Of a DNA stretch of 28,629 nt, positions 5,393-28,105 are shown in pieces (the stretch's first letter is position 1; each line of letters opens with the position of its first letter). A program made the translations under genes and the position numbers. The notes under the pieces were generated by a model that was not told where the DNA came from, did not search any database, and saw only the letters and a list, made by a program, of their open reading frames with translations. The stretch is from a virus. The stretch lies in the IMG/VR virus record IMGVR_UViG_3300028045_000070; one strand, 5' to 3'.

Positions 5393-6187
5393 TTAGAAAG
5401 TCAAACTACCGGTTACAGCCAGCGTCGTCAAAGCAGCAACGCCCAACGCAGTAAGGCCCGCTCCCAACAAAGAAAACATAACCACAAGTCCACGAAAACG
5501 ACTATCTCGCTTATACGCAGCCAGGAAGCGGGCTGCTTTGCCTGGAACAATAGGAGTCAAGATAGAGACATTAACGTCGGATTCTCGTTTTCCGTTTTCC
5601 GTCTCTACAGTCCAGGTGCCATCGCTTGCTTCCCCAATCAGGATACAAGGATAGTGCTTGAAGGTGTGATATACGATCATCCCAGGAGTCATAGCTTGCT
5701 GGTTGATTTCAGCCTGCGCCTTACGCTGTGCTACAACAAGTGCTGCATCTCGGTAATGCTCAGCAGTTACATCTCCCAAAACCTCACTAGCAGACAAGGA
5801 CTCTGGTTCAATGATCTTTTCTGCTCCTCGTAGGCGTTCGATGCTACACTCCCTAGCCCCATCCTCGGCAGCTAGCCGCTTTTTGTTGTTTTTGTTGTTA
5901 CGAGCATTGCGGGACTGGGCACCCGTAGCTCCGCGAAGTAGCTTGTAGCTGTAGTTTTCGCTTCCTCCATCAGGATGGGCTAGTTTTACCTCGCCACGAG
6001 CCCCGACAGACACGCACTCCAGCGCTGTGTTTGCAATTTTTTCATGCCCCCATACAAGTCCACTAGGGTAAGGCTGTTTCTGTTCTTCCAGAGTAGGACG
6101 ACGGGCAACATAGTAAGCCCCAACTACAATAGTGTCTGGGTCAAGGAGCGAATACTGCTCGACGAGGCTCTGCTGGTTAATAATCAT
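5393..6187 (-). CDS. tail-anchored membrane protein, paralog family member 1 (shared C-terminal domain)
   Basis: The C-terminal segment EHYRDAALVVAQRKAQAEINQQAMTPGMIVYHTFKHYPCILIGE...W.VE is followed by a TM helix. It aligns with the C-termini of ORFs 14138-15211 and 26789-28105. Confidence 0.55.
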   Translation of the reverse strand: MIINQQSLVEQYSLLDPDTIVVGAYYVARRPTLEEQKQPYPSGLVWGHEKIANTALECVSVGARGEVKLAHPDGGSENYSYKLLRGATGAQSRNARNNKNNKKRLAAEDGARECSIERLRGAEKIIEPESLSASEVLGDVTAEHYRDAALVVAQRKAQAEINQQAMTPGMIVYHTFKHYPCILIGEASDGTWTVETENGKRESDVNVSILTPIVPGKAARFLAAYKRDSRFRGLVVMFSLLGAGLTALGVAALTTLAVTGSLTF

Positions 6188-6217
6188 CTGTGGATCCTTT
6201 TCCCCGAGTGCTGCTTT

Positions 6218-6245
6218 ACTATAGCATTTGCCAAAAACCTGTCAA
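6218..6245 (-). promoter_or_regulatory. sigma70-type promoter (TTGACAGG, N16, TATAGT) for the 5393-6187/AAA+ operon
   Basis: The minus strand reads TTGACAGGTTTTTGGCAAATGCTATAGT. A leader of about 30 nt with GGGGAAAAGGA follows before the ATG. Confidence 0.55.
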
Positions 6246-6284
6246 GCGATAAGCCAGGCTGGAATCGATCACCATAAAATCTTA

Positions 6285-6312
6285 TAGACAAAATAGTATG
6301 TTTTGCTAAAAT
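6285..6312 (+). promoter_or_regulatory. plus-strand promoter (TAGACA, N16, TAAAAT) giving a leaderless transcript of the 6319 gene
   Basis: TAGACAAAATAGTATGTTTTGCTAAAAT is followed by GTCTTT and then the ATG at 6319. Confidence 0.45.
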
Positions 6313-6318
6313 GTCTTT

Positions 6319-6648
6319 ATGTATGGATTTGTAACCGATAGCCCACTATTCGATAACCCAGGTGGCTTTAATAGAGCACTAACTAATGAAGAGAGTCTTC
6401 GTTTACGAGCCTCTGCACAACAAGCAATAGAAGCAGGCCGCCCTATGACAATGGCTGAGATGTATGGAAAGCCTCAGCAGCTATTTAGGCAACTAAGTGG
6501 GTTTGATGGCCTAGAATCAGCAGCAGGCAGCGCAGTTGTGGGAATTATTCTAGGGGCTTTTCTAGCGTCTAAGTGGGGAATTAAACTTTTTCCGGTTGGT
6601 CTTATCATCGGCTATACAGTAACTAGTCAATTAGTGGAGCACATGTAA
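6319..6648 (+). CDS. small membrane protein
   Basis: 109-aa ORF with a hydrophobic C-terminus, lying in an AT-rich plus-strand mini-operon. Confidence 0.45.
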   Translation: MYGFVTDSPLFDNPGGFNRALTNEESLRLRASAQQAIEAGRPMTMAEMYGKPQQLFRQLSGFDGLESAAGSAVVGIILGAFLASKWGIKLFPVGLIIGYTVTSQLVEHM

Positions 6649-6932
6649 TGAAAAGTATCGGTTTTGGTGCCTATGATGGCTTTTTAAGTGTGAAACCTGC
6701 ATCTTTATCTTTAGGGCAGTATCGACATAATCCCCATCAAGCTCAAGCTCAAGAAACGGGGCTGAGCCTAACCTCACAAATAGTGATGGGTGCGGTTATT
6801 GCTTCACAGCTAGGCGCATACATATATAAAGAAGTGGCAGGCACTCCAGATTTTCGCTGGCACTGGTATGACACAGTCTTAATTCCGTCTTATATGCTAT
6901 TCGGAATATTCGAGATTTTTGGTAAAAAGTAA
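6648..6932 (+). CDS. small membrane protein
   Basis: 94-aa ORF whose start overlaps the upstream stop (TAATG). Confidence 0.45.
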   Translation: MKSIGFGAYDGFLSVKPASLSLGQYRHNPHQAQAQETGLSLTSQIVMGAVIASQLGAYIYKEVAGTPDFRWHWYDTVLIPSYMLFGIFEIFGKK

Positions 6933-6979
6933 AACTATCTCTCGTGTTGAGGCACGCTCATGCTATACTAGCCTTCATG

Positions 6980-7204
6980 GTAGTAGATTGTAGAAGTTGC
7001 CACAAAGAAATAGGGTATACAAAATCCATAGAAGGCCATAAAAGGCCCCTTTCATATCTCTATGATATCCCCATGCTAAGTGGGATGGCTAAAGCTGTCA
7101 ATGATGATTGGGTTGGAGTAATTTACAGTGATGAAATCTATTGCCGCCTTTGCATAAGCAGTAAACGCGTTGTTTTTGGAACTATTAATTCTCTTTTCCA
7201 GTAA
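6980..7204 (+). CDS. small Cys-rich protein (CxxC...CxxC)
   Basis: MVVDCRSCHKE...YCRLCISS. The track ORF begins at 6944 with TTG. The ATG at 6980 is preferred because it lies 7 nt after a TATACT box. Confidence 0.35.
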   Translation, partial: VVDCRSCHKEIGYTKSIEGHKRPLSYLYDIPMLSGMAKAVNDDWVGVIYSDEIYCRLCISSKRVVFGTINSLFQ

Positions 7205-7610
7205 AGGGCGAGACGTAGGACTCACTGCCTTCTGGACCTAAAACCTTCGCCACCCAATTGGTAGTTTCTATTTCCCCCGCTCGTTTGATATTACTCTGGC
7301 CTAATGTTCGGTAATAGGCTGCCTGATATATCCATTTCGCTTTGAGAAGGGTAGCTGCCTCTTCAATAGAATAGGCAACACTAGGATGCGCAAAAGGTAG
7401 CCCTTTTTGGGAAGGCTTTACGTGAAGAAAACAGGCCCCACTACTCGGAGGCCATTGCATACGTCCTTCTCTAATCCAGATTGCCTTTCCGGGAGAAAAA
7501 GACTGATTTCTAGCCTCAGAGTCAGTAAACCTGTGCTTTACAACAATGGGCACGATACTATCAAGACCAACAAAATAAGCTGTGATAGGTTCTTCAAGAG
7601 GAATTTTCAT
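7185..7610 (-). CDS. hypothetical protein
   Basis: 141-aa ORF with no motif I can name. Confidence 0.4.
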   Translation of the reverse strand: MKIPLEEPITAYFVGLDSIVPIVVKHRFTDSEARNQSFSPGKAIWIREGRMQWPPSSGACFLHVKPSQKGLPFAHPSVAYSIEEAATLLKAKWIYQAAYYRTLGQSNIKRAGEIETTNWVAKVLGPEGSESYVSPFTGKEN

Positions 7611-8031
7611 TTAGCACAATACTTTGGTTTAGCACAATCTCAACAGTTGAGATATCATCCACACAAACATCTACTACTACCCACTGTAAGTGCCCCTCAT
7701 GGGCTAGCTTTTTTCTATACAAGGTAATGAAGCTATCTTCTCCCGAGGAAAACCAAGCAGCCCGGTGGAAATCAACCCGAACGTCATTTTTAAGCGTCAT
7801 GACGTAGCTATCATGCACTGTTTTAGATCTTAATAGGAGCGGCCCCAAGTTACTAAGGTCTTCTTGGGCACGTTCGTAATCCGTGGGTTCCGGGTGGTCC
7901 TCTTCCTCTTCCTGCGGCTCATGCTTTTTGCGACCCCTGCCTTTTGTTTTAGGCTTTGGAGATGGTGCCACTGGCTCGGGTTTAGGAGGAAGAAGCGAAT
8001 TATAAAGATCGGGCGGGCTAGATTCTAACAT
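7594..8031 (-). CDS. AT-hook-like, Pro-rich N-terminus fused to an unknown C-terminal domain
   Basis: PKPEPVAPSPKPKTKGRGRKKHEPQEEEED is followed by a compact domain. Confidence 0.45.
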   Translation of the reverse strand: MLESSPPDLYNSLLPPKPEPVAPSPKPKTKGRGRKKHEPQEEEEDHPEPTDYERAQEDLSNLGPLLLRSKTVHDSYVMTLKNDVRVDFHRAAWFSSGEDSFITLYRKKLAHEGHLQWVVVDVCVDDISTVEIVLNQSIVLNENSS

Positions 8032-8043
8032 TAGGAAATCATA

Positions 8044-8691
8044 TCAGGTTTCTATATTTTTACCAGCCCCGAGTTTGATAGACCCACCATTTTTCTTTAA
8101 AGTGCCATCGCGCAACATCTCATTAAGAACAATGTTAGCTCTTACTTTTCTGACCCTTCGTAATTCTATTAGACGAGTAATTTCTTTATCTTCATTCATA
8201 AAACGGTTTAATAGTTCGTCTTTTGAAATCTTGGAGTCCCCTAAAGATTTCAAAAGAGATTCTTGTATTTTATCTTGTTCTTCTGTAATAGCTATCGGCA
8301 GCGGGTTCCATTTGCGAGTAGGATGCTCCCAATGATCCATCTCACAAGCAAAATGACGATGCTTTGTATTAGCTTTCCTAAAGCAAGGAGGCTCTAGAAT
8401 TAGCATCCATTCAGTACCTGCAGATAGCTTAGGGAAAAACTCCCTCCCCCGCTCGTAATCGCGGCTAATTACGTTATAGTTGTAAGGCTTCCCAAAAATA
8501 GATTTACCACTAAACTGCTCTTTAATGGTAGCCCAAAAACGTGATGACCAACACCAATCGCTCCCTACAATTCGATCCCCATCATAGGTATCAAAGAAGG
8601 TGACAAGACCAAACCAAGACTCTCTCCATAAAACAAAAGTTGTATAGAGGGTGGATTGCTCTTCGAAGATTATAATGTTTGTTTGGCTCAT
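8044..8691 (-). CDS. hypothetical protein (AT-rich segment)
   Basis: The ATG at 8689-8691 shares a base with the stop of the upstream MetRS-like ORF (TAATG), so the start was set at the internal Met of the track ORF. Confidence 0.45.
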   Translation of the reverse strand: MSQTNIIIFEEQSTLYTTFVLWRESWFGLVTFFDTYDGDRIVGSDWCWSSRFWATIKEQFSGKSIFGKPYNYNVISRDYERGREFFPKLSAGTEWMLILEPPCFRKANTKHRHFACEMDHWEHPTRKWNPLPIAITEEQDKIQESLLKSLGDSKISKDELLNRFMNEDKEITRLIELRRVRKVRANIVLNEMLRDGTLKKNGGSIKLGAGKNIET

Positions 8692-8990
8692 TAATTCTTC
8701 TCCAGGCGAGGGAACAGAGGCTCGCACTTAACGATTTTCTCAGCCAGAAGATTATCAAGAATCTTTTCTGCCGTTTCGGGAATTACGGGAGAAGCTAGAT
8801 TTACCAAGAAAATAACATCATTGACCAGAGTTGTTAAGACTTGCGTCAGACGCTCAGTCTCTCCCTTCTTGTAGAGTTCCCAAGGTTTTTCATCTTCGAT
8901 GGTTTTATTAGCTTGCCGAAGACGAGTCCAGATATCCTCCAAACCTTCTTTAAAGCGCAGATCGCGATATTCTTCTGGAACTCTCGACAT
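8691..8990 (-). CDS. stand-alone fragment resembling the C-terminal anticodon-binding domain of methionyl-tRNA synthetase
   Basis: KPWELYKKGETERLTQVLTTLVNDVIFLVNLASPVIPETAEKILDNL...EPLFPRLE matches the MetRS helical anticodon-binding region and its terminal PLFPR motif. The ORF is only 99 aa but has its own promoter. Confidence 0.55.
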   Translation of the reverse strand: MSRVPEEYRDLRFKEGLEDIWTRLRQANKTIEDEKPWELYKKGETERLTQVLTTLVNDVIFLVNLASPVIPETAEKILDNLLAEKIVKCEPLFPRLEKN

Positions 8991-9011
8991 CTCTCACCGC
9001 CTTCTAAGGAG

Positions 9012-9039
9012 AGCTTACCTTAAGGAGGATCCCTGTCAA
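9012..9039 (-). promoter_or_regulatory. sigma70-type promoter (TTGACAGG, N16, TAAGCT)
   Basis: The minus strand reads TTGACAGGGATCCTCCTTAAGGTAAGCT, about 20 nt upstream of the 8990 ATG. Confidence 0.5.
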
Positions 9040-9054
9040 GGGACTGTAATCTTA

Positions 9055-9441
9055 CTATTGATTTGCTGAATGCTTAGGAGCATAGAAAGTACAAAGTTCA
9101 GTCCCAGCAGATACATCCTTCAGGGCGATGAAATCTAATAATCTGTTCTGGTCCCTGCCATTGATACTATAAAAAACATTTGGTGTCTTAGAGTGGTTGA
9201 ATATTGATCCATACCCGAAAACAACTAAGGCACCCTTTGGGTTACAGTGAGATTTAAAAACATAATTCTGCAGAATATTTGATTGGTCATATATCATATC
9301 CTTGTGAACTTCAACAAAAGGACAAATCTCTAATAGTTCCCCTTTTCGGATAGAACTTTTAGCGAAAACACCATAACCCGCTCCGGGAATTTTACTTTTA
9401 CCGATTATGAGTTTTACAGGCCCCTGGTACTTAGAATACAT
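9055..9441 (-). CDS. minimal SET-domain lysine methyltransferase (vSET-like, 128 aa)
   Basis: GAGYGVFAKSSIRKGELLEICPF is the SET-N GxG motif. FNHSKTPNV is the NHSxxPN motif. AGTELCTFY supplies the catalytic Tyr region. The overall layout resembles Chlorella virus vSET. Confidence 0.7.
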   Translation of the reverse strand: MYSKYQGPVKLIIGKSKIPGAGYGVFAKSSIRKGELLEICPFVEVHKDMIYDQSNILQNYVFKSHCNPKGALVVFGYGSIFNHSKTPNVFYSINGRDQNRLLDFIALKDVSAGTELCTFYAPKHSANQ

Positions 9442-9472
9442 ATGTTTATATTACCAAATAGGCGCATCATTG

Positions 9473-10165
9473 CTAATCTTGAAAAGATCTAAAACCAAAC
9501 CTAGCTCTTAGGAAATCCACAATATCTTGAACTTTTTCTGTTTCAACATATGGCCCGATTCCCTCGTCATAAGGACTGCAAACATCTTGGTGAGGAAAGC
9601 CGTATAGCAACCCACCAAAGTCATATTGTGTTGTTTTTAGAGTAACTATGGCTTCATCCATGCCATCCCACTCAACCTCTGTGTCGTATTCCGACCCTTT
9701 AACATAATTGTCAATTTCTGTTTGTTTTTCTATGTCTGATTCCTCTATCCAAGGAGGATGATCATCCTCGAAAAAATACCTTTTTACTACAACAGGGGCC
9801 ACGCTAAACATAAATTCCCATTGAGTGTAGCCATAAATGTCGTTAAGAAACTTTCTCGGCTTGCAGTATAAGCCAGGACCGGCTTGTATTGATAGAAAGT
9901 AGCTGCGTTGCGAGTATGGGTGTTCTATATCTTCTTGACCAAAGACCAGAGCATCAAAAGTTGGGCCGAAGTCCTTGTTCTTCTTATTCAACAAAGTTCT
10001 AAAATCTATTGGCTCCTGGTTTTGAAGCACATGCCTGGTCCCGGCATATAAGATCCTAGGTTCAACCTCAAGCCCCCTTCTTCTGCAGTAAATAAAGGCA
10101 CGGCTGCAAGCCTCTTCATCGCCTTGAAAACATTGTCTTTCCAGTTCGCGGTATTTTTCATCCAT
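9473..10165 (-). CDS. hypothetical protein
   Basis: 230-aa ORF with no recognisable motif. Confidence 0.45.
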   Translation of the reverse strand: MDEKYRELERQCFQGDEEACSRAFIYCRRRGLEVEPRILYAGTRHVLQNQEPIDFRTLLNKKNKDFGPTFDALVFGQEDIEHPYSQRSYFLSIQAGPGLYCKPRKFLNDIYGYTQWEFMFSVAPVVVKRYFFEDDHPPWIEESDIEKQTEIDNYVKGSEYDTEVEWDGMDEAIVTLKTTQYDFGGLLYGFPHQDVCSPYDEGIGPYVETEKVQDIVDFLRARFGFRSFQD

Positions 10166-10187
10166 GAACGTATTTTACCAAACCCTC

Positions 10188-10652
10188 TCAAAAATAAAGA
10201 GGAGGAATCTGGTCTACCGCCCAACAACTATCATCCAACAGATAATCAATAAAGGTTTCAGCGTCGTCAGTGCTAAAATTACTTTTCTGCCAAAACTCAT
10301 ATTTTGATCGTTCTTTGATGGGCGTTACTAGCTGACTCGGATCTAATCCAAATTGTGTGGCCGTGATATCAACGATGTAATCGCCATATTCCACATAACA
10401 GTGCCCACTAAGGTCTTCATCATCTAACCAAACAACAAGCTGGGGCTTGAACCGCTCATCCGCCATATTGAGCACAACCGCATTATTGAGCATGTGGAAA
10501 ACTTTCATCGCCCCATATGCACATAATCCGGTCATACTACTATAACCACCAACCTCTTCTTTATACAGTTCTAGCGACACCCGCGCTTTTGAGGCCACCT
10601 TTTTGATAATACTACTTGTTAGCATGAGAATCTTCTTTAACTTGGTCCCCAA
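10188..10652 (-). CDS. possible transglutaminase-like cysteine peptidase (Cys-His-Asp)
   Basis: GLCAYGAMKVF...GHCYVEYGDYIVDITATQ places the three residues in the order expected for a transglutaminase-like core. The start codon is uncertain. Confidence 0.35.
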   Translation of the reverse strand: MGTKLKKILMLTSSIIKKVASKARVSLELYKEEVGGYSSMTGLCAYGAMKVFHMLNNAVVLNMADERFKPQLVVWLDDEDLSGHCYVEYGDYIVDITATQFGLDPSQLVTPIKERSKYEFWQKSNFSTDDAETFIDYLLDDSCWAVDQIPPLYF

Positions 10653-10750
10653 TCATATGGACCCAGGGCAGCCACATAGCACTCCAGGTTCTAGATTGAA
10701 CTAGCCCCCAAACCGAATAAGAAGCCTGCTCCTCTATAGCAACCCCATGA

Positions 10751-10806
10751 ACAATAGCTATACGAACAATAGCTACATCTACATGCATAGCTACATCTAC
10801 ATGCAT
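10751..10806. repeat. short tandem direct repeats (2x18 bp agctacatctacatgcat and 2x10 bp acaatagcta)
   Basis: Read directly from the sequence in the intergenic/3'UTR space between the 10188 and 10810 genes. Confidence 0.6.
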
Positions 10807-10809
10807 CAA

Positions 10810-11094
10810 TTACTGCCCATGAATCTTCAAAATCTCTTCGAGAATTAGCTTAGGGGTAACGCGGAACTCATATTCTTCCCAATCAAATGGGTAGCCAAAC
10901 TCCTCTGCAAAACCCTCCTCGCTGATACCAGTAAGGTCTTCTGGTGTTCGCGTGTAAGTTGTCTTGTGATCCGCAGTTCTAATCATAATAGTACGGCCAC
11001 GAAACTCCCAAGACCAAACCTCTTTCTGAGAAAGATGGATCTTCCGTTTGAGGGGTTTATGTTTCGCTATCTTTTTTTGATCTCGCTGTTTCAT
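10810..11094 (-). CDS. hypothetical protein
   Basis: The internal ATG (MKQRDQKK) overlaps the stop of an upstream 43-aa ORF (ATGA). Confidence 0.4.
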   Translation of the reverse strand: MKQRDQKKIAKHKPLKRKIHLSQKEVWSWEFRGRTIMIRTADHKTTYTRTPEDLTGISEEGFAEEFGYPFDWEEYEFRVTPKLILEEILKIHGQ

Positions 11095-11222
11095 GGCTTC
11101 AAACACCTTACTTGGCCGCAGTTGACACATTTATACGTGTCATTCCACTTGTCTCCTGAGACGAAGACATAAGTAGTTTCCTTTTTACACACGGTGCAGT
11201 TACGTTCGATTGTTCTGCTCAT
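11091..11222 (-). CDS. 43-aa zinc-ribbon ORF
   Basis: Manual translation gives MSRTIERNCTVCKKETTYVFVSGDKWNDTYKCVNCGQVRCLKP, coupled to the next gene. Confidence 0.35.
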   Translation of the reverse strand: MSRTIERNCTVCKKETTYVFVSGDKWNDTYKCVNCGQVRCLKP

Positions 11223-11226
11223 TGGA

Positions 11227-11469
11227 TTAGCTCTCAATCTCACCCTTACGATTCATCGTAGGGCGCTTCTTTAATTTAGCTCGCTGTTTGTCAGTCATGG
11301 TAGTTCTACACCACTCAACACTGTAAGTCTTTATTACGTTCTTGATATAAGTATCAATGGCTGGATGGAACGCGATAGAATCCACCAGCCCCATCCGCTT
11401 TTTGAACCAGGTTGACCCAAACACCAAGGGTAAGAGCGCAACAATCCCAACCACCAACCTCAATAGCAA
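11227..11469 (-). CDS. small protein with a hydrophobic N-terminus
   Basis: 80-aa ORF. Confidence 0.3.
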   Translation of the reverse strand: MLLRLVVGIVALLPLVFGSTWFKKRMGLVDSIAFHPAIDTYIKNVIKTYSVEWCRTTMTDKQRAKLKKRPTMNRKGEIES

Positions 11470-11486
11470 ACATTTCTTCTCCGTGG

Positions 11487-11669
11487 CTACCTAAGCCGGT
11501 CAATCATCTCGCGAAAAAGAATATCAAGCATTTCCTCTGCCTTTTTACGACGCTCTTTGCGGCGGTCTTCGGCATAACCACTAGGATCATAATTGGGAAG
11601 CTCCTCATTGCGGGCTTCCCTGTATTCGTCTACTGCGTCAAACAGCTTGTCGTATTTGTTGTATTTCAT
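11487..11669 (-). CDS. small charged hypothetical protein
   Basis: 60-aa ORF whose start overlaps the upstream stop. Confidence 0.35.
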   Translation of the reverse strand: MKYNKYDKLFDAVDEYREARNEELPNYDPSGYAEDRRKERRKKAEEMLDILFREMIDRLR

Positions 11670-11875
11670 AGATTTTCAGGCCAATTACTATTAAAACTTT
11701 TAACGATCTCGCCCTTGATGATAGCGCAATCCCATCGGGTAAAACCACGCTTCTTCATCCGCTCAATATGAGCCTTTAGCCCCGCAGCTTTAGCTTCCAC
11801 CAACAGAATCTCTCCATCGGTTTCTCTCTGAAATATCAATACATGAGTGAACATTATAGCTCTAGCAAAGAACAA
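11666..11875 (-). CDS. small hypothetical protein
   Basis: 69-aa ORF. An internal start at MFTHV is also possible. Confidence 0.35.
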   Translation of the reverse strand: MFFARAIMFTHVLIFQRETDGEILLVEAKAAGLKAHIERMKKRGFTRWDCAIIKGEIVKSFNSNWPENL

Positions 11876-11961
11876 TTAGGGCAACGTCGGACCAGTTTTT
11901 TAAGTGGTGCCAGTCCTCCACATCCGATAGGTAAAAGCACTACCCTAATTGTTAGTTGATT

Positions 11962-12324
11962 TTAGCGATGGCGACGACGAGGCGTAGTGCGACGACGAGG
12001 CGTAATCACGCGATAACGAGGCGTAACCACACGACTACGACGAGCGCCCCGACGACGATGACGTGGGCGGTAGATGGGACGTGGGCGATAGATAGGCCGA
12101 CGCGGGCGATAGATAGGCCGACGTGCGCGGGGGCGCTGCGTCCGGTAACGGGGCGTGCAAATTCGCTGTGGGTAGCAGAACTTTACACGACGTGCAACAC
12201 GCACATAAGTTCTACCGCAACGCTGGTAGCTATAAACCACACGGGTTCCACAAGCCTCAGCAGTCGAGGTAAAAGTTGTCAAACTCAGCACAACGGCTGC
12301 CAAAAACGCAAAAATAGTTTTCAT
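11962..12324 (-). CDS. secreted Cys-containing protein with Pro/Arg-rich PIYRPR tandem repeats
   Basis: The signal peptide is MKTIFAFLAAVVLSLTTFTSTAEA. GGAG lies 8 nt upstream of the ATG. The mature part contains RRPIYRPRRPIYRPRPIYRPRHRRR, and the opposite-strand ORF is a shadow. Confidence 0.55.
   Translation of the reverse strand: MKTIFAFLAAVVLSLTTFTSTAEACGTRVVYSYQRCGRTYVRVARRVKFCYPQRICTPRYRTQRPRARRPIYRPRRPIYRPRPIYRPRHRRRGARRSRVVTPRYRVITPRRRTTPRRRHR
12062..12124. repeat. roughly 3x21 bp tandem repeat (gggcgatagataggccgacg) encoding the PIYRPR repeats
   Basis: Read directly from the sequence. Confidence 0.6.
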
Positions 12325-12373
12325 TTAGAAATCTCCAGTTCTAAACCCAGTAGAACATAGTCAGATCGCTCTG

Positions 12374-12514
12374 TCAAGAGCCCGCTGTATCTTTGATAGC
12401 TTTTACTATCAAATAAACTCCCAGCCAAAAGTTGGCTAGCGTAAAAATACCAAATCCACTCCAAAAGAGGAAGTAAACACAGTCTTTGCTGATGCCAAGA
12501 TCCGCTAGTCCCAT
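12374..12514 (-). CDS. 46-aa putative membrane peptide
   Basis: Manual translation gives MGLADLGISKDCVYFLFWSGFGIFTLANFWLGVYLIVKAIKDTAGS. Its TGA stop lies inside the TTGACA box of the downstream promoter. Confidence 0.25.
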   Translation of the reverse strand: MGLADLGISKDCVYFLFWSGFGIFTLANFWLGVYLIVKAIKDTAGS

Positions 12515-12642
12515 TTAATTATCCTTATCCTTTAGCTGATCCATCGTACCGCTTTGCTTGCAATACTGGCATTCCCAGTTATCGAGAGGGGGCTTTCCTT
12601 TACGGCTCATCCAATTATGAGGGTTGTTAGTCATTCTATTTC

Positions 12643-13029
12643 CTATCCCTCGCTATTAGGATGTAACTCTATAAGCTGATTCAACAAAACATCTTCATTG
12701 TCGGGAAGATTATTATTGCGAGCTTGATTAAGCAAACACGATTCCACGGATCCTTCGATCCTGCCACCCTTGACCAGAGCTACTACAGTTCGCATAGTCC
12801 AGGGAAGTGCTGTCAACCAGCCCTCTACCCAGCTACGATCCTCGGTTTTGCATACCCCAGCAGCATACTGGACTAGCGCGTACACACAAACACCCGACTG
12901 CAAAGCATAGTCGGGTGTTAGGTGCAACTCAGGCAAGCGCACAAGGACACTATCAAGAAAACTGTCAAAAGTAGTGTGCAAACCAAAACCGATGGTCTGC
13001 TTAGAAGGGGCAGGGGCCGGGGCAATCAT
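12643..13029 (-). CDS. hypothetical protein
   Basis: 128-aa ORF. Confidence 0.4.
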   Translation of the reverse strand: MIAPAPAPSKQTIGFGLHTTFDSFLDSVLVRLPELHLTPDYALQSGVCVYALVQYAAGVCKTEDRSWVEGWLTALPWTMRTVVALVKGGRIEGSVESCLLNQARNNNLPDNEDVLLNQLIELHPNSEG

Positions 13030-13232
13030 GCTAACCTCGTGGTAGATGTAGGTGTAGATGTAGATAATGCGTCATTGATAATGCAGGATAGGTCGGGAAG
13101 AGGTTTATTGCACTCTTCACAAGGTTGGTTGCACTCTGTCCAATGATAGCTATGTTCGTCGTAACGATATGGTGCTCCGCAGGGGCATTTGTAGTCATAA
13201 CAGTAGCAGCTATGCGGATTGCAGGGGAGCAC
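13026..13232 (-). CDS. small Cys-rich protein
   Basis: Nine Cys in 68 aa, including CPCG and CEEC. Confidence 0.35.
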   Translation of the reverse strand: MLPCNPHSCYCYDYKCPCGAPYRYDEHSYHWTECNQPCEECNKPLPDLSCIINDALSTSTPTSTTRLA

Positions 13233-13235
13233 GGC

Positions 13236-13508: not shown

Positions 13509-13559
13509 TGCAGGAGCATGGCTTTAGGTGCCCGATGTCGCAAAATTGCATGTAGTCCA

Positions 13560-14125: not shown

Positions 14126-14137
14126 CGCAAGGAAGCA

Positions 14138-15211
14138 CTAAGCACCAAAGTAGTGCAGCACAAAGTACCAACCAGCCATATCTACAGCAGCAAACAAAGC
14201 CACTACTGCCAGACCAATCTTAACCTTGCTGCTAGGGTTCGACACCTTAGCCCAGGCCCTCTTCACAAGACCAGGACTCTTGGTAGTCAGCATAGCAACA
14301 TTCAAGTGGGTTTTTTCTCCAGAAGGAGACTCTACCTGCCAAACATTTGCTGAAACCTTAGCAAGCAGAATGTAAGATGCACTCTTGAAGACGTGGTAAA
14401 CCTTCATTCCAGCGATAAACGACTGTTGGGCAATCTCTACACGGGCCTTACCCGGAGCAACCTCTTCCGCAGCATCTTGGTAGTGGGTTGAGACGACAGC
14501 CTCAAGGACGTTTTTAGCTGTAAGCAATTTCGGTGTATCTGGCTCGTTCATAACTGGTTCCTTAATCTCTGTCTTACCCATTGTAGTGGCGGGGTCTACG
14601 CCGAAGAATGATGTGCCATACTTGTCGAAGTAGGTTCCCTCTGCAAGATTTCCAGGTGGCTTCCCGCTGGCAAATGCGGCAGAATAAGATGCCTTCCCGG
14701 TGGCAAATGCGGCAGCATAGGATGCTTGCCACTCTCGACACTGGCAGCCAAAGCCCATCAACTCCTTCATAGTGCAAGAGCACAAATCAATTTCTTGACA
14801 AGGATTTGTTTGTCCCGAAGGGGCTTGAAAGTAGCCTGGCTCATAAGGCTCATATTGCTCGGTTGAGCACAATTCCGGGTGTTTTGGTTTTGCTGTTTTC
14901 ATATCAAAAGCTCCTTCGCTCGTAAACCTATCAGGATAGCCAGAAAAAATCGCATTCAACTCGCGGAACTTCTTTGCCACGATCTTTGCTTTGCACTTAT
15001 ATCCGACTTTTTCGGCGCACCCCGGATGATACCACTTATGATAATCGCCCCAATCGGAGGAGTTTGCCGGAACACCGACGCGGGTTGACTTATCCGCAAT
15101 TAGCTCCTGGCATTCTCGGCATTTGCTGGTGCCCGATTTAGCAGTCGCTACGATGAAAGCCTTCTTTTTCTTTTTCCGTTTCGTCTTTGGCATACTCGCG
15201 CTCGCGCTCAT
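14138..15211 (-). CDS. PARP-type zinc-finger (zf-PARP) protein with the paralog-family C-terminal domain and TM anchor (family member 2)
   Basis: AKSGTSKCRECQELI-x27-HKWYHPGC has the same spacing as the PARP1 nick-sensor finger (C-x2-C-x28-H-x2-C) and follows a KKKKKK stretch. The C-terminus HYQDAAEEVAPGKARVEIAQQSFIAGMKVYHVFK... ends in a TM helix. The start was set at the internal ATG 15211, which the promoter geometry makes leaderless. Confidence 0.7.
   Translation of the reverse strand: MSASASMPKTKRKKKKKAFIVATAKSGTSKCRECQELIADKSTRVGVPANSSDWGDYHKWYHPGCAEKVGYKCKAKIVAKKFRELNAIFSGYPDRFTSEGAFDMKTAKPKHPELCSTEQYEPYEPGYFQAPSGQTNPCQEIDLCSCTMKELMGFGCQCREWQASYAAAFATGKASYSAAFASGKPPGNLAEGTYFDKYGTSFFGVDPATTMGKTEIKEPVMNEPDTPKLLTAKNVLEAVVSTHYQDAAEEVAPGKARVEIAQQSFIAGMKVYHVFKSASYILLAKVSANVWQVESPSGEKTHLNVAMLTTKSPGLVKRAWAKVSNPSSKVKIGLAVVALFAAVDMAGWYFVLHYFGA
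14661..14726. repeat. 2x33 bp intragenic tandem duplication (encodes ASYAAAFATGK / ASYSAAFASGK)
   Basis: Read directly from the sequence. Confidence 0.6.
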
Positions 15212-15218
15212 TTTTCCT

Positions 15219-15247: not shown

Positions 15248-15255
15248 TGGAAGCC

Positions 15256-15603
15256 TCAAAGCCAAACCAGAGCCAAGCTGCCCCTTTTATTTTCGGTATC
15301 GACCTCTACAACAGGATGCAGTTTCTTGTCTTTGCCTAAAGGGGCAACACCTTGCAATTTAAGCTCTTTTTCAAGAGTTTTAACTGCGTGGCCGGGATTA
15401 AATGCTGCAACAATTTCTATTGCTTCATCCAAAGAACGACATTCATAGTAACGCTTATCACTTTTCCAGTTGAGCAGGCATTGGATGGTCATCCAATTAA
15501 AGCCGATGGACACACCTGTAAGAGATATAAGATTCTCGCCCTCATTACATGGAATTGCACAAAGAATATCAGAAAGCTGCTGTAGTTTCTCGAAATCAAT
15601 CAC
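15256..15603 (-). CDS. hypothetical protein (start uncertain)
   Basis: The track ORF 15256-15753 overlaps the upstream gene by 158 nt. A GTG at 15601-15603, preceded by AGGACGG and overlapping the upstream TGA (GTGATTGA), is a plausible coupled start. Confidence 0.35.
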   Translation of the reverse strand: MIDFEKLQQLSDILCAIPCNEGENLISLTGVSIGFNWMTIQCLLNWKSDKRYYECRSLDEAIEIVAAFNPGHAVKTLEKELKLQGVAPLGKDKKLHPVVEVDTENKRGSLALVWL

Positions 15604-16021
15604 CACAACCGTCCTGGGTCTTTTTATGAGGAGGCATACAAGTGCGGCACAAGCATTCCGCACACGCCAGGATCTTTGTATACTTTGGAGGGCTGTTTTC
15701 GTCCGTAATGCGGACCAGATTTTGGATTTCTGCTCGATCTGAGCCACAATCACAACCAGCCTCTACATCCCCAACCACAAAACTCTCTACATCCCCAACC
15801 CCAAAACTCACAGTATGCTCCTCCCAGATCCTCTTAATGGCTTTTCCACTATCTGTTTCATGGAAAAGACAAGGCTGACCAAGATGCTGATCTTTATCGT
15901 GGTCACACTCGATCTTAAACTCGTTCACAAAGGCTTGCCCCAACCTGAGATGTGGAAACCCTCCTGTATTGAATTTCTGCAAGAAAGGCCGGATCTGAGC
16001 ATAACTAACTTTGTTCTTCAT
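15596..16021 (-). CDS. hypothetical Cys-containing protein
   Basis: 141-aa ORF whose ATG lies 5 nt after a TAGGAT -10, so the transcript is leaderless. Confidence 0.45.
   Translation of the reverse strand: MKNKVSYAQIRPFLQKFNTGGFPHLRLGQAFVNEFKIECDHDKDQHLGQPCLFHETDSGKAIKRIWEEHTVSFGVGDVESFVVGDVEAGCDCGSDRAEIQNLVRITDENSPPKYTKILACAECLCRTCMPPHKKTQDGCGD
15761..15806. repeat. 2x22 bp intragenic tandem repeat (ctctacatccccaacc[a/c]caaaa)
   Basis: Read directly from the sequence. It encodes GVGDVESFVVGDVEAG. Confidence 0.55.
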
Positions 16022-16026
16022 ACCTA

Positions 16027-16055: not shown

Positions 16056-16064
16056 GACACACAA

Positions 16065-24036: not shown

Positions 24037-24936
24037 CTACTCCTCGTCGTCGTCGTCGTCAAGAAACTTGTGCGCGGCACTAGCCGTGCCAGTGTTAGCC
24101 GCCGTCTTAGTAGCCGCAGCCTTGGGCGCAGCCTTAGCTGGTGCAGGAACCTCACCCGGCTTCTCCACTACCATTTTGTCGAGCCCGAACATCACCGCAG
24201 GCGTCATTTGAGTAGCCATGCAACTTTGCAAGCACATTTGGCTCATGCTGCCAACTTCTGTGATCTCATCATTGGTGATAAGGGCACCTTCACCACGCTT
24301 CTTACCAGAGACAGGCGGGTGAGAGATAACCGGAACCGCTTGCTCAACAAAAGGATACTGGTAGAGCTTTGCAGTAAAGGCATCAGTGACTTCATTTCCT
24401 GGGATACCAGGACCAATGACCAACTCGAAGACACCATTCTTGTTTTCAGTACGCATCTGGGTCTTAAGGACTAGATAGCCTCCACGGAGAGCACTAGCGT
24501 CAAGGCCACATTTCTCTTCAAGAGCCTTAACAGCTTCCCGATAAAGCGGGCTATCCTTCGGAGTCCCACCATTGATAAACATGGCGTGCTTGGCTGGACC
24601 AAAACGCTTCCGCGTTTTACCCTTGGGCTTATCGAAGATACCACTACCATCTTCAAGCATCTTGATAGTAAGCTCGGAGCCGCGTTCGATACCAGCATCA
24701 TCAAGAGCAGTGAAAACCGCTACGATAACGTCGGAAAAACGATTCTTCTGCATAGACTTCCACATCTCTTTGATGTGTTCCCGAGTCAATCGAAGAACGG
24801 TTTCATCTGGCAGAGTGCCAGCCGCCTGTAGGGTCTTAAAGAGACGAGTTTCTCGGATCTCGGGGTCCATATACTCGTCTTCGGGCTTGTTCGGTGCCCA
24901 AGGCCCGTTGTATGCTTGTTCAGTTTGTTCGGTCAC
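24037..24936 (-). CDS. hypothetical protein with an Ala/Pro/Lys-rich linker and acidic C-terminal tail (DDDDDEE)
   Basis: 299-aa ORF with a GTG start. The tail resembles the acidic tails of single-strand-binding or nucleic-acid-associated proteins. Confidence 0.5.
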   Translation of the reverse strand: MTEQTEQAYNGPWAPNKPEDEYMDPEIRETRLFKTLQAAGTLPDETVLRLTREHIKEMWKSMQKNRFSDVIVAVFTALDDAGIERGSELTIKMLEDGSGIFDKPKGKTRKRFGPAKHAMFINGGTPKDSPLYREAVKALEEKCGLDASALRGGYLVLKTQMRTENKNGVFELVIGPGIPGNEVTDAFTAKLYQYPFVEQAVPVISHPPVSGKKRGEGALITNDEITEVGSMSQMCLQSCMATQMTPAVMFGLDKMVVEKPGEVPAPAKAAPKAAATKTAANTGTASAAHKFLDDDDDEE

Positions 24937-25007
24937 TGCTATTTCTTTCTATGGATGTTATAGCGATTGGAAGCGGTTGGCACTTGTCCCGTTGACTTCT
25001 CTGGGCA

Positions 25008-25035
25008 AGTTTACCATTTTCCCCACTCCCGTCAA
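25008..25035 (-). promoter_or_regulatory. sigma70-type promoter (TTGACGG, N16, TAAACT)
   Basis: The minus strand reads TTGACGGGAGTGGGGAAAATGGTAAACT. Confidence 0.45.
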
Positions 25036-25094
25036 TACTTATTGAAGTCGATTTGAGATTTTTTCGGGAGGCTCACAAACCCTGTAAAATGGAC

Positions 25095-25511
25095 TTAACG
25101 ATCATTCTTGGTTTGATCCTGTAATTTCTTAACATTGCTAGCAATGTCTGCTTTAACTTGTTTAATGTATTCTAGTAGAAGCTCTGCTGATCTTACAGCA
25201 ACTTTATCTTCGGAAGAAAGAGCGAAGCTGAAGAAATCTGCTGTACTTTTCTTAGACTTTACTTGCGACTCAAGACCCTCAAGATTTTTTAGTAACAGCT
25301 TATAGGCTTCTACTTCTTTTAGAAGTGTCACACGTTCTTCGGCTGTTAGCAACTTTGGTGCAGGCTGCTCCTCGCCGCCACCAGAATCCCCACCATTATC
25401 AGATTTATTATCTTTCTGGCGAAATTCTAATGTAGGATTATCCGTAAGGGGCTTTGGTGTTGTACCACACCCACACAATAGAAAACCCAGAAGCAAAGAA
25501 AGAAGTTTCAT
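25095..25511 (-). CDS. putative lipoprotein
   Basis: MKLLSLLLGFLLCGCG looks like a signal peptide with a lipobox-like Cys. A low-complexity GGDSGGGEE segment and a coiled coil follow. Confidence 0.5.
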   Translation of the reverse strand: MKLLSLLLGFLLCGCGTTPKPLTDNPTLEFRQKDNKSDNGGDSGGGEEQPAPKLLTAEERVTLLKEVEAYKLLLKNLEGLESQVKSKKSTADFFSFALSSEDKVAVRSAELLLEYIKQVKADIASNVKKLQDQTKNDR

Positions 25512-25519
25512 CTTACACC

Positions 25520-25756
25520 TTATCTAAGCGGGCACCAATCAGGAATTTTCGAGGGCTCCTCACTGGGGCGCTCAACGTAAGCAATATCACTAGAAATAGG
25601 TAATCGCTCACATCTATCTGTTGTTCCCGATTTAGGACGATCAGTTTTAGAGCAAAACCACTTGACAACATGCTCCCAACTATCAGCAGTATAGAAACGC
25701 TCTGTTTCTAGGTGCGGGCAGTCTTTGCATGTTTCAATTTTGAGATTAACACTCAT
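25520..25756 (-). CDS. small zinc-binding protein
   Basis: CKDCPH...C...C...C over 78 aa. Confidence 0.4.
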   Translation of the reverse strand: MSVNLKIETCKDCPHLETERFYTADSWEHVVKWFCSKTDRPKSGTTDRCERLPISSDIAYVERPSEEPSKIPDWCPLR

Positions 25757-25770
25757 GGATCAATCCCGGC

Positions 25771-26025
25771 TTAGGCAACCCAAGCCGCAGTGAGGATCTT
25801 CACATCCTTACCACAGAACTTGTCGATAGTGCTCTGGCCTTTACATCTACCAGAAGCCACTCCGGCATCAGCACAGAATGATTCGTAGGTTCCACTATAA
25901 GGACGAAGAGTGTTATCACCCCCGTAATCGGGATCTGACCAAACCCAACGCTGGCCCTCATCGGATTCCAGCAAAAAGTGCTCGCTCCAGAACCAAGTAA
26001 CTCGGACTCGGACATCAGTCAACAT
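25771..26025 (-). CDS. hypothetical protein
   Basis: The ATG at 26025 (MLTDVRV) is preferred over the TTG start of the track ORF. A TTGACAG, N17, TTAAAT promoter at about 26102-26131 fits. Confidence 0.35.
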   Translation of the reverse strand: MLTDVRVRVTWFWSEHFLLESDEGQRWVWSDPDYGGDNTLRPYSGTYESFCADAGVASGRCKGQSTIDKFCGKDVKILTAAWVA

Positions 26026-26342
26026 TTTTCTAAACCTTTTCTCCACTCGTTTAAGAAACAATCTTGGAAGTTGGCTCCGTGCGCCCTTCCTCTTTGTGTT
26101 AGCGCCATTTAATCATGGCGGGTGATTTCTGTCAAGGTAAGCGGCTGACCTCCCGTGGGAGCACCGCCTCCAATGCCCATGACAGTAGCATACACCCTAC
26201 CTAGCTGTCAATGGATGCAGTTTCCAGTTTCTCAACCATAGAAGGAATCTCAGCTAGCAAGCGAGAAAGACGACCGCAGTTATCCTTCCAATCAGCAGCA
26301 TCCCTCCAAGTTTCTGCGTCAGCAGCTAGTTTTAGCATTTCT

Positions 26343-26392
26343 TAGTATGTCATTGAACCAGAATCCTTGGTATGTCATTGAACCAGAATCCT
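26343..26392. repeat. 2x25 bp tandem direct repeat (t[a/g]gtatgtcattgaaccagaatcct)
   Basis: Read directly from the sequence. The second copy supplies the last codons and the stop of the 26375-26752 gene. Confidence 0.6.
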
Positions 26393-26752
26393 ATCATCTC
26401 TGACACGCAAACACGCATGGCAGGTCACTCCGATGTTTTCTACATAATCTGGGACGCAACCGCACCTCCAGATAAGCCCTGTCTCGTAAGCCCGCTCAAT
26501 GCCCGTCTCTCGGCAACCATCTTCATTACAGTAAGCAAAGCGTTCTGATTGTCCATCATAGACGGCACCAAGCCAGCAATGCGTCCCACCCTCGTTGACG
26601 TGTTCACTGGGGTTTCCGCAAAAGATGCAAGCCCAAGGCAATCTATCAGCACTATAATCAGGGCAATCTCCCTGGTCCTGAAACACAATAGCTCGATCTT
26701 GTAAGGTATAGTGCGGTTTAGGCACTCTAGGCATGTTGACTCCGGGGCTCAT
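26375..26752 (-). CDS. Cys-rich protein
   Basis: 125-aa ORF containing CIFCGN, CNEDGC, CGC and CHAC motifs. It is leaderless, with the ATG 6 nt after the -10. Confidence 0.45.
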   Translation of the reverse strand: MSPGVNMPRVPKPHYTLQDRAIVFQDQGDCPDYSADRLPWACIFCGNPSEHVNEGGTHCWLGAVYDGQSERFAYCNEDGCRETGIERAYETGLIWRCGCVPDYVENIGVTCHACLRVRDDRILVQ

Positions 26753-26758
26753 GTTGCT

Positions 26759-26787
26759 ATGCTAGCCTTTATGGCTCTTTCCGTCAA
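26759..26787 (-). promoter_or_regulatory. sigma70-type promoter (TTGACGG, N17, TAGCAT), leaderless
   Basis: The minus strand reads TTGACGGAAAGAGCCATAAAGGCTAGCATAGCAACATG. Confidence 0.5.
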
Positions 26788-26788
26788 G

Positions 26789-28105
26789 TTATAGGGGCAG
26801 AGCCAGACCATAAGCGGAGATATATACACAAGCAGCTATAAAAGCCCCAATCAATCCAATAGCGGTAGACATACTAGCTGCTCGGTTACCTTTTCGGGTC
26901 GCATCGCGTGCAAAACCTTTTGCTTTATGTGCAACATTGTTAGTAAGGCCCCACAACATTATACAGAAAGCAGTAAATGCTGCTCCAACCTTGTTGGTAG
27001 TCCCTCCAAGCCACGCACCAGTCTTATTAAGGAAACTAGGGCTGGTAGTTCGTAGCACCGCAGGATGCAGCCGCCCTATGCGCTGACCATCTGGTCTTTC
27101 TGCAATCCAATTACCAGAGCGTGACTCTTCCACCAGCATATAAGGTTGGTGGCTGAAAACATGCCAGACGAGCATACCCGGAGCTAGTGCCGCCAGGTTT
27201 GTCTCTACACGAGCCTTGGTAAGAGCAACCTCTTGCGCCGCCCCTGCGTATTCATCACTAACAGCAATCTGTAGAACGTCTGAGCAGGATAGTTTCTCTT
27301 GTTTCTCTTGCTCCTGCCTCAACTTAGCCTCTAACAGCCTATTCGATGCCTCCAGATGCCCTTGCTGCCACAACTTGTCTTCCAGCAGCAGGTTTTCTGC
27401 ATGTAGTTTCTTATTCTCATCTCTAAGAACAGTCTGCGAATCCCGCATAGTAATCAAGGTCTTGTGGAGATCCTTAAGATCCAGTTCCAGCTTATCCTGT
27501 TTAGGAGAACCAACAGCCTCCGCACTCGCTCCGAAAGTAATACAGTGATCAATAGGGGCTGAGGTAATACGCGCAGATTGGGCCGATAACGACCTACCTG
27601 AGTGGCCCTTCGCCAGGATCCGAGACCCTGTGATATACCCATAAGTAGGGTTACGATTCCAGTTGTCATATGTTCCAGATTTAGGCTTAGTGCTTGCTAG
27701 TCTGATCCACTCTGTAGGAACCCAAGCACAAGTAGCGTTATCATCAGGTTTAGGGCTGCCCTTTAGGTGCCAACCATTGATTTTATCTAGCAGTGGCGCA
27801 ACACCCATTTTCTTATGGGCCTGTAGGTGAAAAATCTTGGTGCCCAAGCTGTTAACCCACTTTATCCAGCGATCCGAAAATTCGGAATAAGGTTCTGGTA
27901 GTGTACTAGGAACAGTAATATAGACTTTATCCCCAGAACTGAATACTGGACCATCAAGCTGCCTGCAAAAACGGCACTTGCCCTCACCATTACAAGGAAT
28001 AACACCAGCAGTGTGATTTTTCATATGAGCCTTCCAGCGTTGACGTGATCGACGCGAGGCATCCTTGTAAGGGCCGACTTTGTGGGGTGCGTATTGGTTC
28101 ATCAC
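26789..28105 (-). CDS. coiled-coil protein with the paralog-family C-terminal domain and TM anchor (family member 3)
   Basis: The C-terminus DEYAGAAQEVALTKARVETNLAALAPGMLVWHVFSHQPYMLVEESRSGNW is followed by a TM helix. The N-terminus carries a Cys/His cluster (HMKNHTAGVIPCNGEGKCRFC) and a coiled coil. GAGGTAG lies upstream of the ATG. Confidence 0.55.
   Translation of the reverse strand: MMNQYAPHKVGPYKDASRRSRQRWKAHMKNHTAGVIPCNGEGKCRFCRQLDGPVFSSGDKVYITVPSTLPEPYSEFSDRWIKWVNSLGTKIFHLQAHKKMGVAPLLDKINGWHLKGSPKPDDNATCAWVPTEWIRLASTKPKSGTYDNWNRNPTYGYITGSRILAKGHSGRSLSAQSARITSAPIDHCITFGASAEAVGSPKQDKLELDLKDLHKTLITMRDSQTVLRDENKKLHAENLLLEDKLWQQGHLEASNRLLEAKLRQEQEKQEKLSCSDVLQIAVSDEYAGAAQEVALTKARVETNLAALAPGMLVWHVFSHQPYMLVEESRSGNWIAERPDGQRIGRLHPAVLRTTSPSFLNKTGAWLGGTTNKVGAAFTAFCIMLWGLTNNVAHKAKGFARDATRKGNRAASMSTAIGLIGAFIAACVYISAYGLALPL

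Follow-up and report, generated by a model that had tools for sequence, protein, structure and literature searches.

Three paralogous genes with a common C-terminal module

The 28,629-nucleotide viral sequence IMGVR_UViG_3300028045_000070, which is referred to here over its full length as the window, contains approximately 40 plausible genes, nearly all of which are on the minus strand. Three of the minus-strand open reading frames (ORFs), designated ORFs A, B, and C, encode proteins that differ in their N-terminal heads but end in a similar module and a hydrophobic segment. An earlier note made from the sequence alone had described them as a paralogous family of tail-anchored membrane proteins, and the three ORFs were recovered exactly where it had placed them. 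ORF A (5393-6187; A-type head) encodes 264 amino acids and is identical to protein P0001. ORF B (14138-15211; B-type head; protein P0003) encodes 357 amino acids from the first ATG at position 15211; the longest ORF starts from a TTG at 15265, and database gene calls give 369- or 351-amino-acid versions. ORF C (26789-28105; C-type head) encodes 438 amino acids from a GTG start that is followed one codon later by an ATG, and the database call (P0042) has 437 amino acids.

The shared juxtamembrane module corresponds to amino acids 128-223 of ORF A (5519-5806), 227-321 of ORF B (14249-14533), and 269-364 of ORF C (27014-27301), all on the minus strand. The three copies were identified by BLASTP and with a hidden Markov model (HMM), and those of ORFs B and C also in AlphaFold2 models. 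In the pairwise BLASTP comparisons, the module showed 43% identity over 96 amino acids between ORFs A and B (E-value of 1e-18), 38% over 87 amino acids between ORFs A and C (5e-17), and 33% over 116 amino acids between ORFs B and C (6e-16). When the HMM built from the three copies was searched against a six-frame translation of the window, only these three copies were detected, and the next match had an E-value of 0.33. The most conserved helix can also be seen in the DNA as a 49-nucleotide repeat with 63-76% identity (5707-5755, 14434-14482, and 27202-27250). The pairwise BLASTP results, the three-copy HMM search, and the 49-nucleotide repeat together indicate that the shared segment reflects true paralogy. 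The C-terminal alignment and motif given in the earlier note were reproduced, and the identities of 33-43% can be set against the level that it had regarded as too low (<20% without a conserved motif). Its domain of about 80 amino acids is real but was drawn too short, as the module spans approximately 95 amino acids.

Predicted structure of the module

The ORF B module and tail were modelled with AlphaFold2 using an alignment of 26 sequences, which gave a mean predicted local distance difference test (pLDDT) score of 91.9. In the model, two helices (model residues 8-19 and 21-39) precede four strands (46-80), after which come a short helix (91-100) and a long terminal one (104-132). The module is thus predicted to consist of a helical pair and a small barrel of the Tudor/SH3-like class, followed by an amphipathic helix and a transmembrane helix. 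The barrel is small, strongly bent, and antiparallel, and superposes on known Tudor/SH3-like members. The weakest matches in the profile searches were tandem Tudor-like repeat proteins, which is consistent with this fold assignment.

Conserved residues L12, Y20, A24, A28, K31, and A32 lie on one helix face, and A24 and A32 are invariant. In the barrel, G44-M45-x-V47-x-H49, L58, and W67 are conserved, and P89 precedes the amphipathic helix, the motif of which is P-x-x-F-x-R-x-W. The conserved [YW]-H-x-[FY] and W residues of the module were considered as a candidate aromatic cage for methyl-lysine or methyl-arginine.

With regard to the curated Tudor, KOW, SH3, and PWWP families, no Pfam match to the module was obtained in the 29 family members described below, and no PDB sequence matched better than an E-value of 0.03. 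Foldseek searches of BFVD yielded weak partial matches only (TM-score ≤0.41), and a search of the PDB with the full ORF C model, in which the head was poorly modelled, yielded no match with an E-value of <0.001. Compared with the Tudor/KOW/SH3-like superfold, the module differs in that its barrel is fused to a helical pair, an amphipathic helix, and a transmembrane anchor, an arrangement that was found in no PDB or BFVD entry. The earlier statement that the domain matches nothing recognizable therefore holds for Pfam, PHROGs, NCBIfam, PADLOC, and the PDB sequences, but not for the fold, which is Tudor/SH3-like and not new.

Predicted C-terminal membrane anchors

Anchors were defined by Kyte-Doolittle hydropathy in a 19-residue window with a threshold of 1.6. 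In ORF A, the anchor comprises amino acids 231-264 (5396-5497; score of 2.15 at 231-259) and is preceded by KRDSRFRG, with five Lys or Arg residues in the 15 amino acids before it and none after it. The ORF B anchor comprises amino acids 331-357 (14141-14221; 2.03 at 329-353) and corresponds to the terminal helix of the AlphaFold2 model (model residues 104-132). The equivalent region of ORF C (26792-26992) contains a weaker hydrophobic helix at amino acids 372-391 and a terminal anchor at amino acids 412-438, of which only the latter exceeds the threshold (2.06 at 409-438); helices were modelled by AlphaFold2 at 357-388 and 407-431. All three segments, scoring 2.03-2.15, are on the minus strand, and the terminal hydrophobic segments were modelled as helices. 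Neither a signal peptide nor any other transmembrane segment of ORFs A, B, and C reached the threshold, including amino acids 372-391 of ORF C. Accordingly, the C-terminal anchors postulated in the earlier note are present, although the description of a single helix applies strictly to ORFs A and B, since ORF C has the second, weaker one.

Of the 29 family members, 27 have a terminal hydrophobic segment that reaches a score of 1.6 or more. Across the 29 members, the 15 residues before the hydrophobic segment contain 77 Lys or Arg residues, whereas those after it contain 13, and the tail beyond the segment is mostly 1-12 amino acids long and not conserved. Such a charge bias together with a short tail is the signature of tail-anchored proteins with the N terminus inside, and insertion of these proteins into a membrane is probable.

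A Prok-RING finger protein encoded elsewhere in the window (992-1525, minus strand) also ends in a hydrophobic segment (amino acids 151-177; Kyte-Doolittle score of 3.12) without containing the module. Its counterpart in a divergent contig (L012, 559-1170), which is located near an A-type gene, likewise has a hydrophobic C terminus and no module. Both RING proteins are thus predicted to be tail-anchored, and tail-anchoring is a wider theme of this locus.

Head classes

The heads agree with their earlier description: a KKKKK stretch, a PARP-type finger, and a CxC...GCxC motif in ORF B, a His/Cys cluster and a long helix in ORF C, and a head without database matches in ORF A. The A-type head domain (amino acids 16-88; 5924-6142, minus strand) is defined by DPDTIxVGxYYVARRPT...W.H...L.C.SV...Y...LR.AT and is kept in P0004, P0014, and P0018; over approximately 70 amino acids, its four members share 20 invariant columns. 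No match to it was found in Pfam, PHROGs, PADLOC, or NCBIfam, and nothing significant among the PDB sequences. A relationship of this head to the module was rejected (profile comparison probability of 0.45%).

ORF B begins with the basic sequence PKTKRKKKKK and a zinc finger of the PARP1/DNA ligase III type (amino acids 8-75; 14987-15190, minus strand) with C-x2-C...H-x2-C ligands. In a phmmer search of the PDB, residues 16-75 matched the Zn1/Zn2 fingers of PARP1 (E-value of 1.5e-10) and the finger of DNA ligase III (3.9e-5) with the CCHC ligands aligned. The only match of ORF B in PHROGs was to a 62-amino-acid zinc-finger PHROG (E-value of 0.00047). The finger is followed by a linker (amino acids 120-158; 14738-14854, minus strand) in which, on reading the sequence, the motif EPGY...NPCQE and a four-Cys motif, CSCx10GCQC, were recognized; these motifs recur in P0007, P0015, P0016, P0017, P0019, P0021, P0023, P0026, and P0029. 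The B-type layout, consisting of a basic N terminus, a zinc finger, and then C-x-C-x(9-10)-G-C-x-C, is found in seven members, and zf-PARP was detected in 7 of the 29 family members. The ORF B linker also contains a 33-nucleotide tandem duplication (14654-14719, minus strand; 88% identical) encoding SYAAAFATGKA and SYSAAFASGKP.

The ORF C head contains an Arg-rich helix and a His/Cys knuckle, A-S-x-R-T/S-x-Q-R-W-x-A-H...C...C-R-F-C (27959-28063, minus strand; AlphaFold2 helix 17-31). This knuckle is the commonest head motif of the family, and its A, S, R, R, H, C, and C residues are invariant in 13-14 members. After it, the AlphaFold2 model shows a small beta region, then disorder, and finally a helix of 67 residues (202-268), which is probably a coiled coil and runs into the module (amino acids 202-271; 27293-27502, minus strand). 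The knuckle matched nothing significant among the PDB sequences. It might bind Zn or an Fe-S cluster. Identification of its G-x-C-N-x-x-C-R-F-C portion as the CX3CX2C motif of radical SAM enzymes was rejected, because the spacing is 3-5, one member is devoid of the last Cys, and no barrel is present: the heads are as short as 60 amino acids (P0024), compared with a partial TIM barrel of approximately 250 amino acids, and biotin synthase was the only PDB match (E-value of 3.9).

Other family members carry HPGH repeats, for which a relationship to the module was likewise rejected (hhalign probability of 0.2%), or other heads. Several head classes have short motifs in common (EPGII, NPCxE, and TPAVxFGL). 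The N-terminal region of a soluble 299-amino-acid protein with an acidic tail, encoded in the window (24037-24936), recurs in the heads of P0006 and P0008; in addition, 183 of the protein's amino acids are matched in the head of the B-type protein P0007 (32% identity, E-value of 1e-17), together with the MSQM...TPAVxFGL motif. This protein appears to be a free-standing version of a head module. The recurrence of the short motifs and the fusion of the 24037-24936 region in P0007 indicate that the heads are mosaics. On the basis of their motifs, nucleic-acid binding is suggested for at least two head classes, namely, those with the DNA-break finger and those with the Arg-rich zinc knuckle.

Family members, lineages, and copy number

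An exhaustive hmmsearch of 1.84 billion (1.84e9) representative proteins yielded 30 proteins with E-values of <1e-8, three of which are the window's own. In every family member, the module lies 29-97 residues from the C terminus. Only the exhaustive search reached these proteins: a word-indexed protein search with module alignments of 3 and 26 sequences gave no family matches, a scan of IMG/VR with a pattern for the module found nothing, and no match to either ORF A or ORF B was returned when 50,697 GenBank phage records were searched with tblastn. Pfam detected only zf-PARP in the 29 members, and searches of PADLOC, NCBIfam, and PHROGs gave no match for ORF A or C and none for the module. Assignment to a defence or anti-defence system was rejected, as there was no PADLOC match. 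The database names are all 'hypothetical protein', except for one named after the zinc finger, and the literature searched on jumbo-phage proteins of the vault, PARP, or tail-anchored kind contained no description of the family. The family thus seems to be rare and previously undescribed; although its fold class and the idea of a tail-anchored adaptor are already known, the family itself is new.

The nearest relative of each module, by identity, is found in another contig (P0004 for ORF A, 61%; P0007 for ORF B, 49%; P0005 for ORF C, 41%), whereas the three copies in the window are only 33-43% identical to each other. P0004 is an ortholog of ORF A, with 45% identity over 298 amino acids (E-value of 1e-81). 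Because each module is closest to a protein of another contig with the same type of head, the head classes represent old lineages and not recent duplications in this genome. The picture of paralogs with swapped heads in the earlier note is correct in that the heads differ and are modular, with pieces shuffled across the family, but the swaps are not recent events within this genome. Overall, the paralogy, the anchors, and the modular heads of that interpretation stand, while the recent head swaps and the new fold do not.

The exact sequence of ORF A was found on a 318,241-bp contig in ENA (k141_3911615), where the window occupies 222,840-251,468, and on a 599,739-bp JGI contig. A fourth paralog, P0006 (359 amino acids), is encoded on the same strand of k141_3911615 at 269,188-270,267 (L015, 10001-11080), approximately 18 kb past the window end; it carries a C-type knuckle and an extra N-terminal 'WKPTKPLSEYSD' region. 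At least four copies (ORFs A, B, and C and P0006) are therefore present within approximately 42 kb. A related 712-kb contig, MDTG01008174.1, contains at least one B-type and at least one C-type copy, which are 41 kb apart.

Source genome and neighbouring genes

A classic-clade AAA ATPase gene (3765-5381, minus strand; FtsH/Cdc48/PAN-like; phrog_8638, E-value of 1e-139) begins 12 bp downstream of ORF A. The AAA ATPase of MDTG01008174.1 is 68.6% identical, and the block from the AAA gene to the gene for a 258-amino-acid WGR protein (1529-2305, minus strand; identified with Pfam, PHROGs, and NCBIfam) is syntenic with that contig. The window also encodes a 585-amino-acid homolog of the Major Vault Protein (MVP; 16098-17855, minus strand) with Vault repeats and the MVP shoulder, which is SPFH-like (Pfam E-value of 1e-25). 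On an IMG/VR contig (L001), an MVP homolog with 65% identity is encoded next to a major head protein of phrog_138, and an MVP match of 21% identity is present in the 735-kb huge phage LR756501. Genes for a T4-type RNA ligase, radical SAM, HNH, and class I aminoacyl-tRNA synthetase proteins are found nearby in the same or related contigs.

The AAA ATPase, the MVP homolog adjoining the head protein gene, and the nearby T4-type RNA ligase, HNH, and aminoacyl-tRNA synthetase genes argue for a phage identity, and the source lineage points to very large aquatic tailed phages, with a genome of >300 kb in this case. When the window was compared with GenBank phage records by megablast, no nucleotide match was obtained. 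Relatives of the family were found on contigs of 134-938 kb, and the clusters of the MDTG01008174.1 family proteins include members on contigs as long as 938 kb and in a 0.22-0.45 µm Tara Oceans sample; the family appears to be confined to this phage lineage. The largest of these contigs, recorded for members of clusters P0043 and P0045 (relatives of L008 and L009), is 938,049 bp long and exceeds the 735 kb of the largest phage genome known according to a review (PMC13282480); it may be a concatemer or a misassembly.

Among the other genes of the window are those for a SNF2 helicase (19591-21627; Pfam, PHROGs, and NCBIfam), a 249-amino-acid PARP catalytic fragment (21773-22522, minus strand; Pfam E-value of 1.8e-6), and a 128-amino-acid SET-domain protein resembling lysine methyltransferases (9055-9441, minus strand; Pfam E-value of 1.6e-13). 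The SET-domain gene shares the locus with the genes for proteins with Tudor-like barrels. PARP1-like domains are split over three genes, with the zinc finger in ORF B (14987-15163) and the others in the WGR protein and the PARP catalytic fragment. The three products might come together in trans as a PARP-like system. The window and the contigs L011/L012 have one combination in common, namely, an A-type gene with a Prok-RING gene and a homolog of ORF 7594-8031.

Proposed function and alternative explanations

We tentatively favour, at somewhat less than an even chance, the interpretation that the family consists of tail-anchored adaptors, which hold nucleic-acid-binding heads at a membrane via a common docking module. 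Interchangeable heads, a conserved cassette, a terminal anchor, and several copies per genome are what would be expected of adaptors to one membrane surface. The proteins would be single-pass with the N terminus inside, and the interchangeable heads would be cytoplasmic. Their common C-terminal cassette would comprise two helices with an Ala-rich conserved face, the Tudor/SH3-like barrel of four to five strands, a short amphipathic helix lying flat against the membrane, and the transmembrane helix, after which the chain all but ends. The heads would be small zinc- or nucleic-acid-binding pieces, such as the PARP1-type finger, the Arg-rich His/Cys knuckle, the CxC...CxC motif, coiled coils, and HPGH repeats. 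If the cassette is a shared membrane-proximal unit for docking or self-assembly, its site would be where the heads deliver DNA (as ends, nicks, or nucleoprotein) or other partners, and several binding activities would be held at the inner membrane of the host, or at a membrane originating from it, on the side facing the cytoplasm. Since at least two head classes resemble nucleic-acid binders, tethering of DNA or nucleoprotein to the membrane would be the most economical mechanism, with the heads presumably binding DNA and the module probably having a docking role. The suggestion in the earlier note of a common docking or assembly domain that tethers different sensors to one membrane complex would fit this architecture. 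The cassette may dock to a partner or self-assemble, or it may act only as a rigid spacer.

Several points weigh against this interpretation. The anchors were judged by hydropathy alone, which is a crude test, and two members, P0005 and P0006, score just under the threshold; insertion of the tail-anchored proteins into a host membrane is an assumption. The invariant Ala/Val/Lys helix face could pack on the module's own barrel instead of binding a partner. No gene neighbour is kept across distant family members, and no interaction partner was found. The A-type head and the 'D' heads (P0028 and P0030) have no recognizable nucleic-acid-binding feature, and the match of ORF B to zf-PARP (PF00645; E-value of 1.2e-8), which covers positions 3-55 of the 87 in the profile, scored 36.0 bits, below the Pfam cutoff of 39.3.

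The alternative explanations rank below the adaptor interpretation in support. The module itself might be the effector, with the barrel, held flat on the membrane, binding and taking over a host inner-membrane complex (for example, one for division, secretion, or respiration) and the heads only tuning or regulating its action, but we regard this as unlikely. Another explanation is that the proteins are membrane-sequestered regulators similar to membrane-tethered transcription factors, the DNA-binding heads of which are freed in response to a signal by extraction or proteolysis, and the AAA+ unfoldase encoded at 3765-5381 could be the extractor. The FtsH/Cdc48/PAN-like ATPase gene directly follows ORF A, the AAA-to-WGR block is kept in the 712-kb relative, and the heads are zinc-finger or basic modules, all of which would suit such a scheme. 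However, AAA proteins of phrog_8638 are common in phages of 70-110 kb that do not have this family, which weakens a specific link, the A-type ortholog P0004 is not encoded beside an AAA gene, and no protease or cleavage site was found, so that this explanation is distinctly improbable. A DNA-end-binding finger combined with a membrane helix would also suit virion or ejection proteins, which would be packaged together with the genome by way of heads that bind DNA and would then insert into the membrane of the host at injection, for instance for DNA-end protection or for formation of an entry vesicle. A Peptidase_M23 gene, of a class that is often virion-associated or lytic, follows one A-type ortholog, and phage proteins are known to be anchored in the membrane vesicles that form on entry of Chimalliviridae (PMC13282480). 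Nevertheless, the approximately 40 kb around the four copies showed no genes for heads, tails, or packaging, the neighbours are genes for nucleic-acid metabolism and small uncharacterized ORFs, and there was no PHROG structural match; we consider a virion role slightly less probable still. That the similarity is due to chance or low complexity, or that the ORFs are not genes, has a negligible probability in view of the E-values of 1e-16 to 1e-18, the approximately 30 homologs with the same architecture on independent contigs, the high-confidence fold, and the full-length conservation of orthologs.

A broader and speculative idea, to which we give little credence, is that the family and the tail-anchored RING proteins form the membrane-anchoring set of a eukaryote-like platform that the megaphage would build on a membrane or a compartment derived from one. 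Such a platform would include split PARP-type DNA-break sensing (with the finger on the membrane and the WGR and catalytic parts soluble), the SET and SNF2 proteins, possibly a vault-like MVP shell, and the Tudor/SH3-like cassette as the docking point. If this is true, it would represent a new kind of viral organelle organizer in bacteria. To our knowledge, megaphage genomes (>500 kb) are almost wholly without annotation, and how these phages organize infection is not understood. The interest of the family comes mainly from its setting in a megaphage locus rich in eukaryote-like DNA and chromatin domains, where a conserved multi-copy family with a PARP1-type finger and other zinc modules on an anchor, among MVP, PARP, WGR, SET, SNF2, and RING genes, offers a testable handle on a possible membrane-associated DNA-handling platform. 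The module also provides a new domain definition that could be used to annotate related genomes, since it is represented by approximately 30 sequences, has been modelled with confidence, and is absent from Pfam.

Comparison with known systems

The finger of ORF B is similar to those of PARP1 and DNA ligase III in its C-x2-C...H-x2-C ligands, but it stands alone on a membrane-anchored protein, with the WGR and PARP catalytic domains in separate genes. The transmembrane helix of the phi29 membrane protein p16.7 is N-terminal, a topology opposite to that of the present family, to which p16.7 has no sequence or fold relation. Functionally, the phi29 proteins p1 and p16.7, which anchor replicating phage DNA, would be a parallel, as the idea is alike: a small membrane protein with a coiled coil and a part that binds DNA or terminal protein recruits the phage DNA to the membrane (PMC4974454). 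The phi29 proteins are encoded by single genes, whereas the present system is a multi-head paralog family known from sequence.

Tail-anchored adaptors of the nuclear envelope (KASH proteins, and LBR with its Tudor domain) have no homology to the family. In KASH proteins, the conserved docking element is a luminal peptide after the transmembrane helix, while here the conserved element would be cytoplasmic and nothing is conserved past the helix. In Chimalliviridae, membrane-anchored early phage proteins are located in the membrane compartment of the early phage infection (EPI) vesicle (PMC13282480). Like the proteins considered here, these belong to very large (jumbo) phages, and the compartment that holds them is bounded by membrane of host origin, but Chimalliviridae are another phage lineage, and the window has no chimallin or PhuZ context.

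Other features of the window

A tRNA-Thr(UGU) gene (22870-22942, minus strand; Rfam score of 63 bits) is located between protein genes. For a 99-amino-acid ORF (8691-8990, minus strand), the sole resemblance is to the domain with which methionyl-tRNA synthetase binds the anticodon (Pfam Anticodon_3, E-value of 2e-5), and a class I aminoacyl-tRNA synthetase gene is present on the related 712-kb contig (L008, 14067-15554). Three ORFs on the minus strand are rich in Cys: 18597-19523 (21 Cys in 308 amino acids) and 26375-26752 (10 in 125) have no family match, and 15596-16021 (9 in 141) has a weak match to MSL2-CXC and no other. A 25-nucleotide tandem duplicate (96% identical) at 26341-26390 covers the 3' end of ORF 26375-26752 and the sequence just downstream. 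Its core 20-mer recurs in inverted orientation (95% complementarity) at 5795-5814, within the part of ORF A that codes for IIEPESL, with which the module starts; this recurrence may be due to chance.

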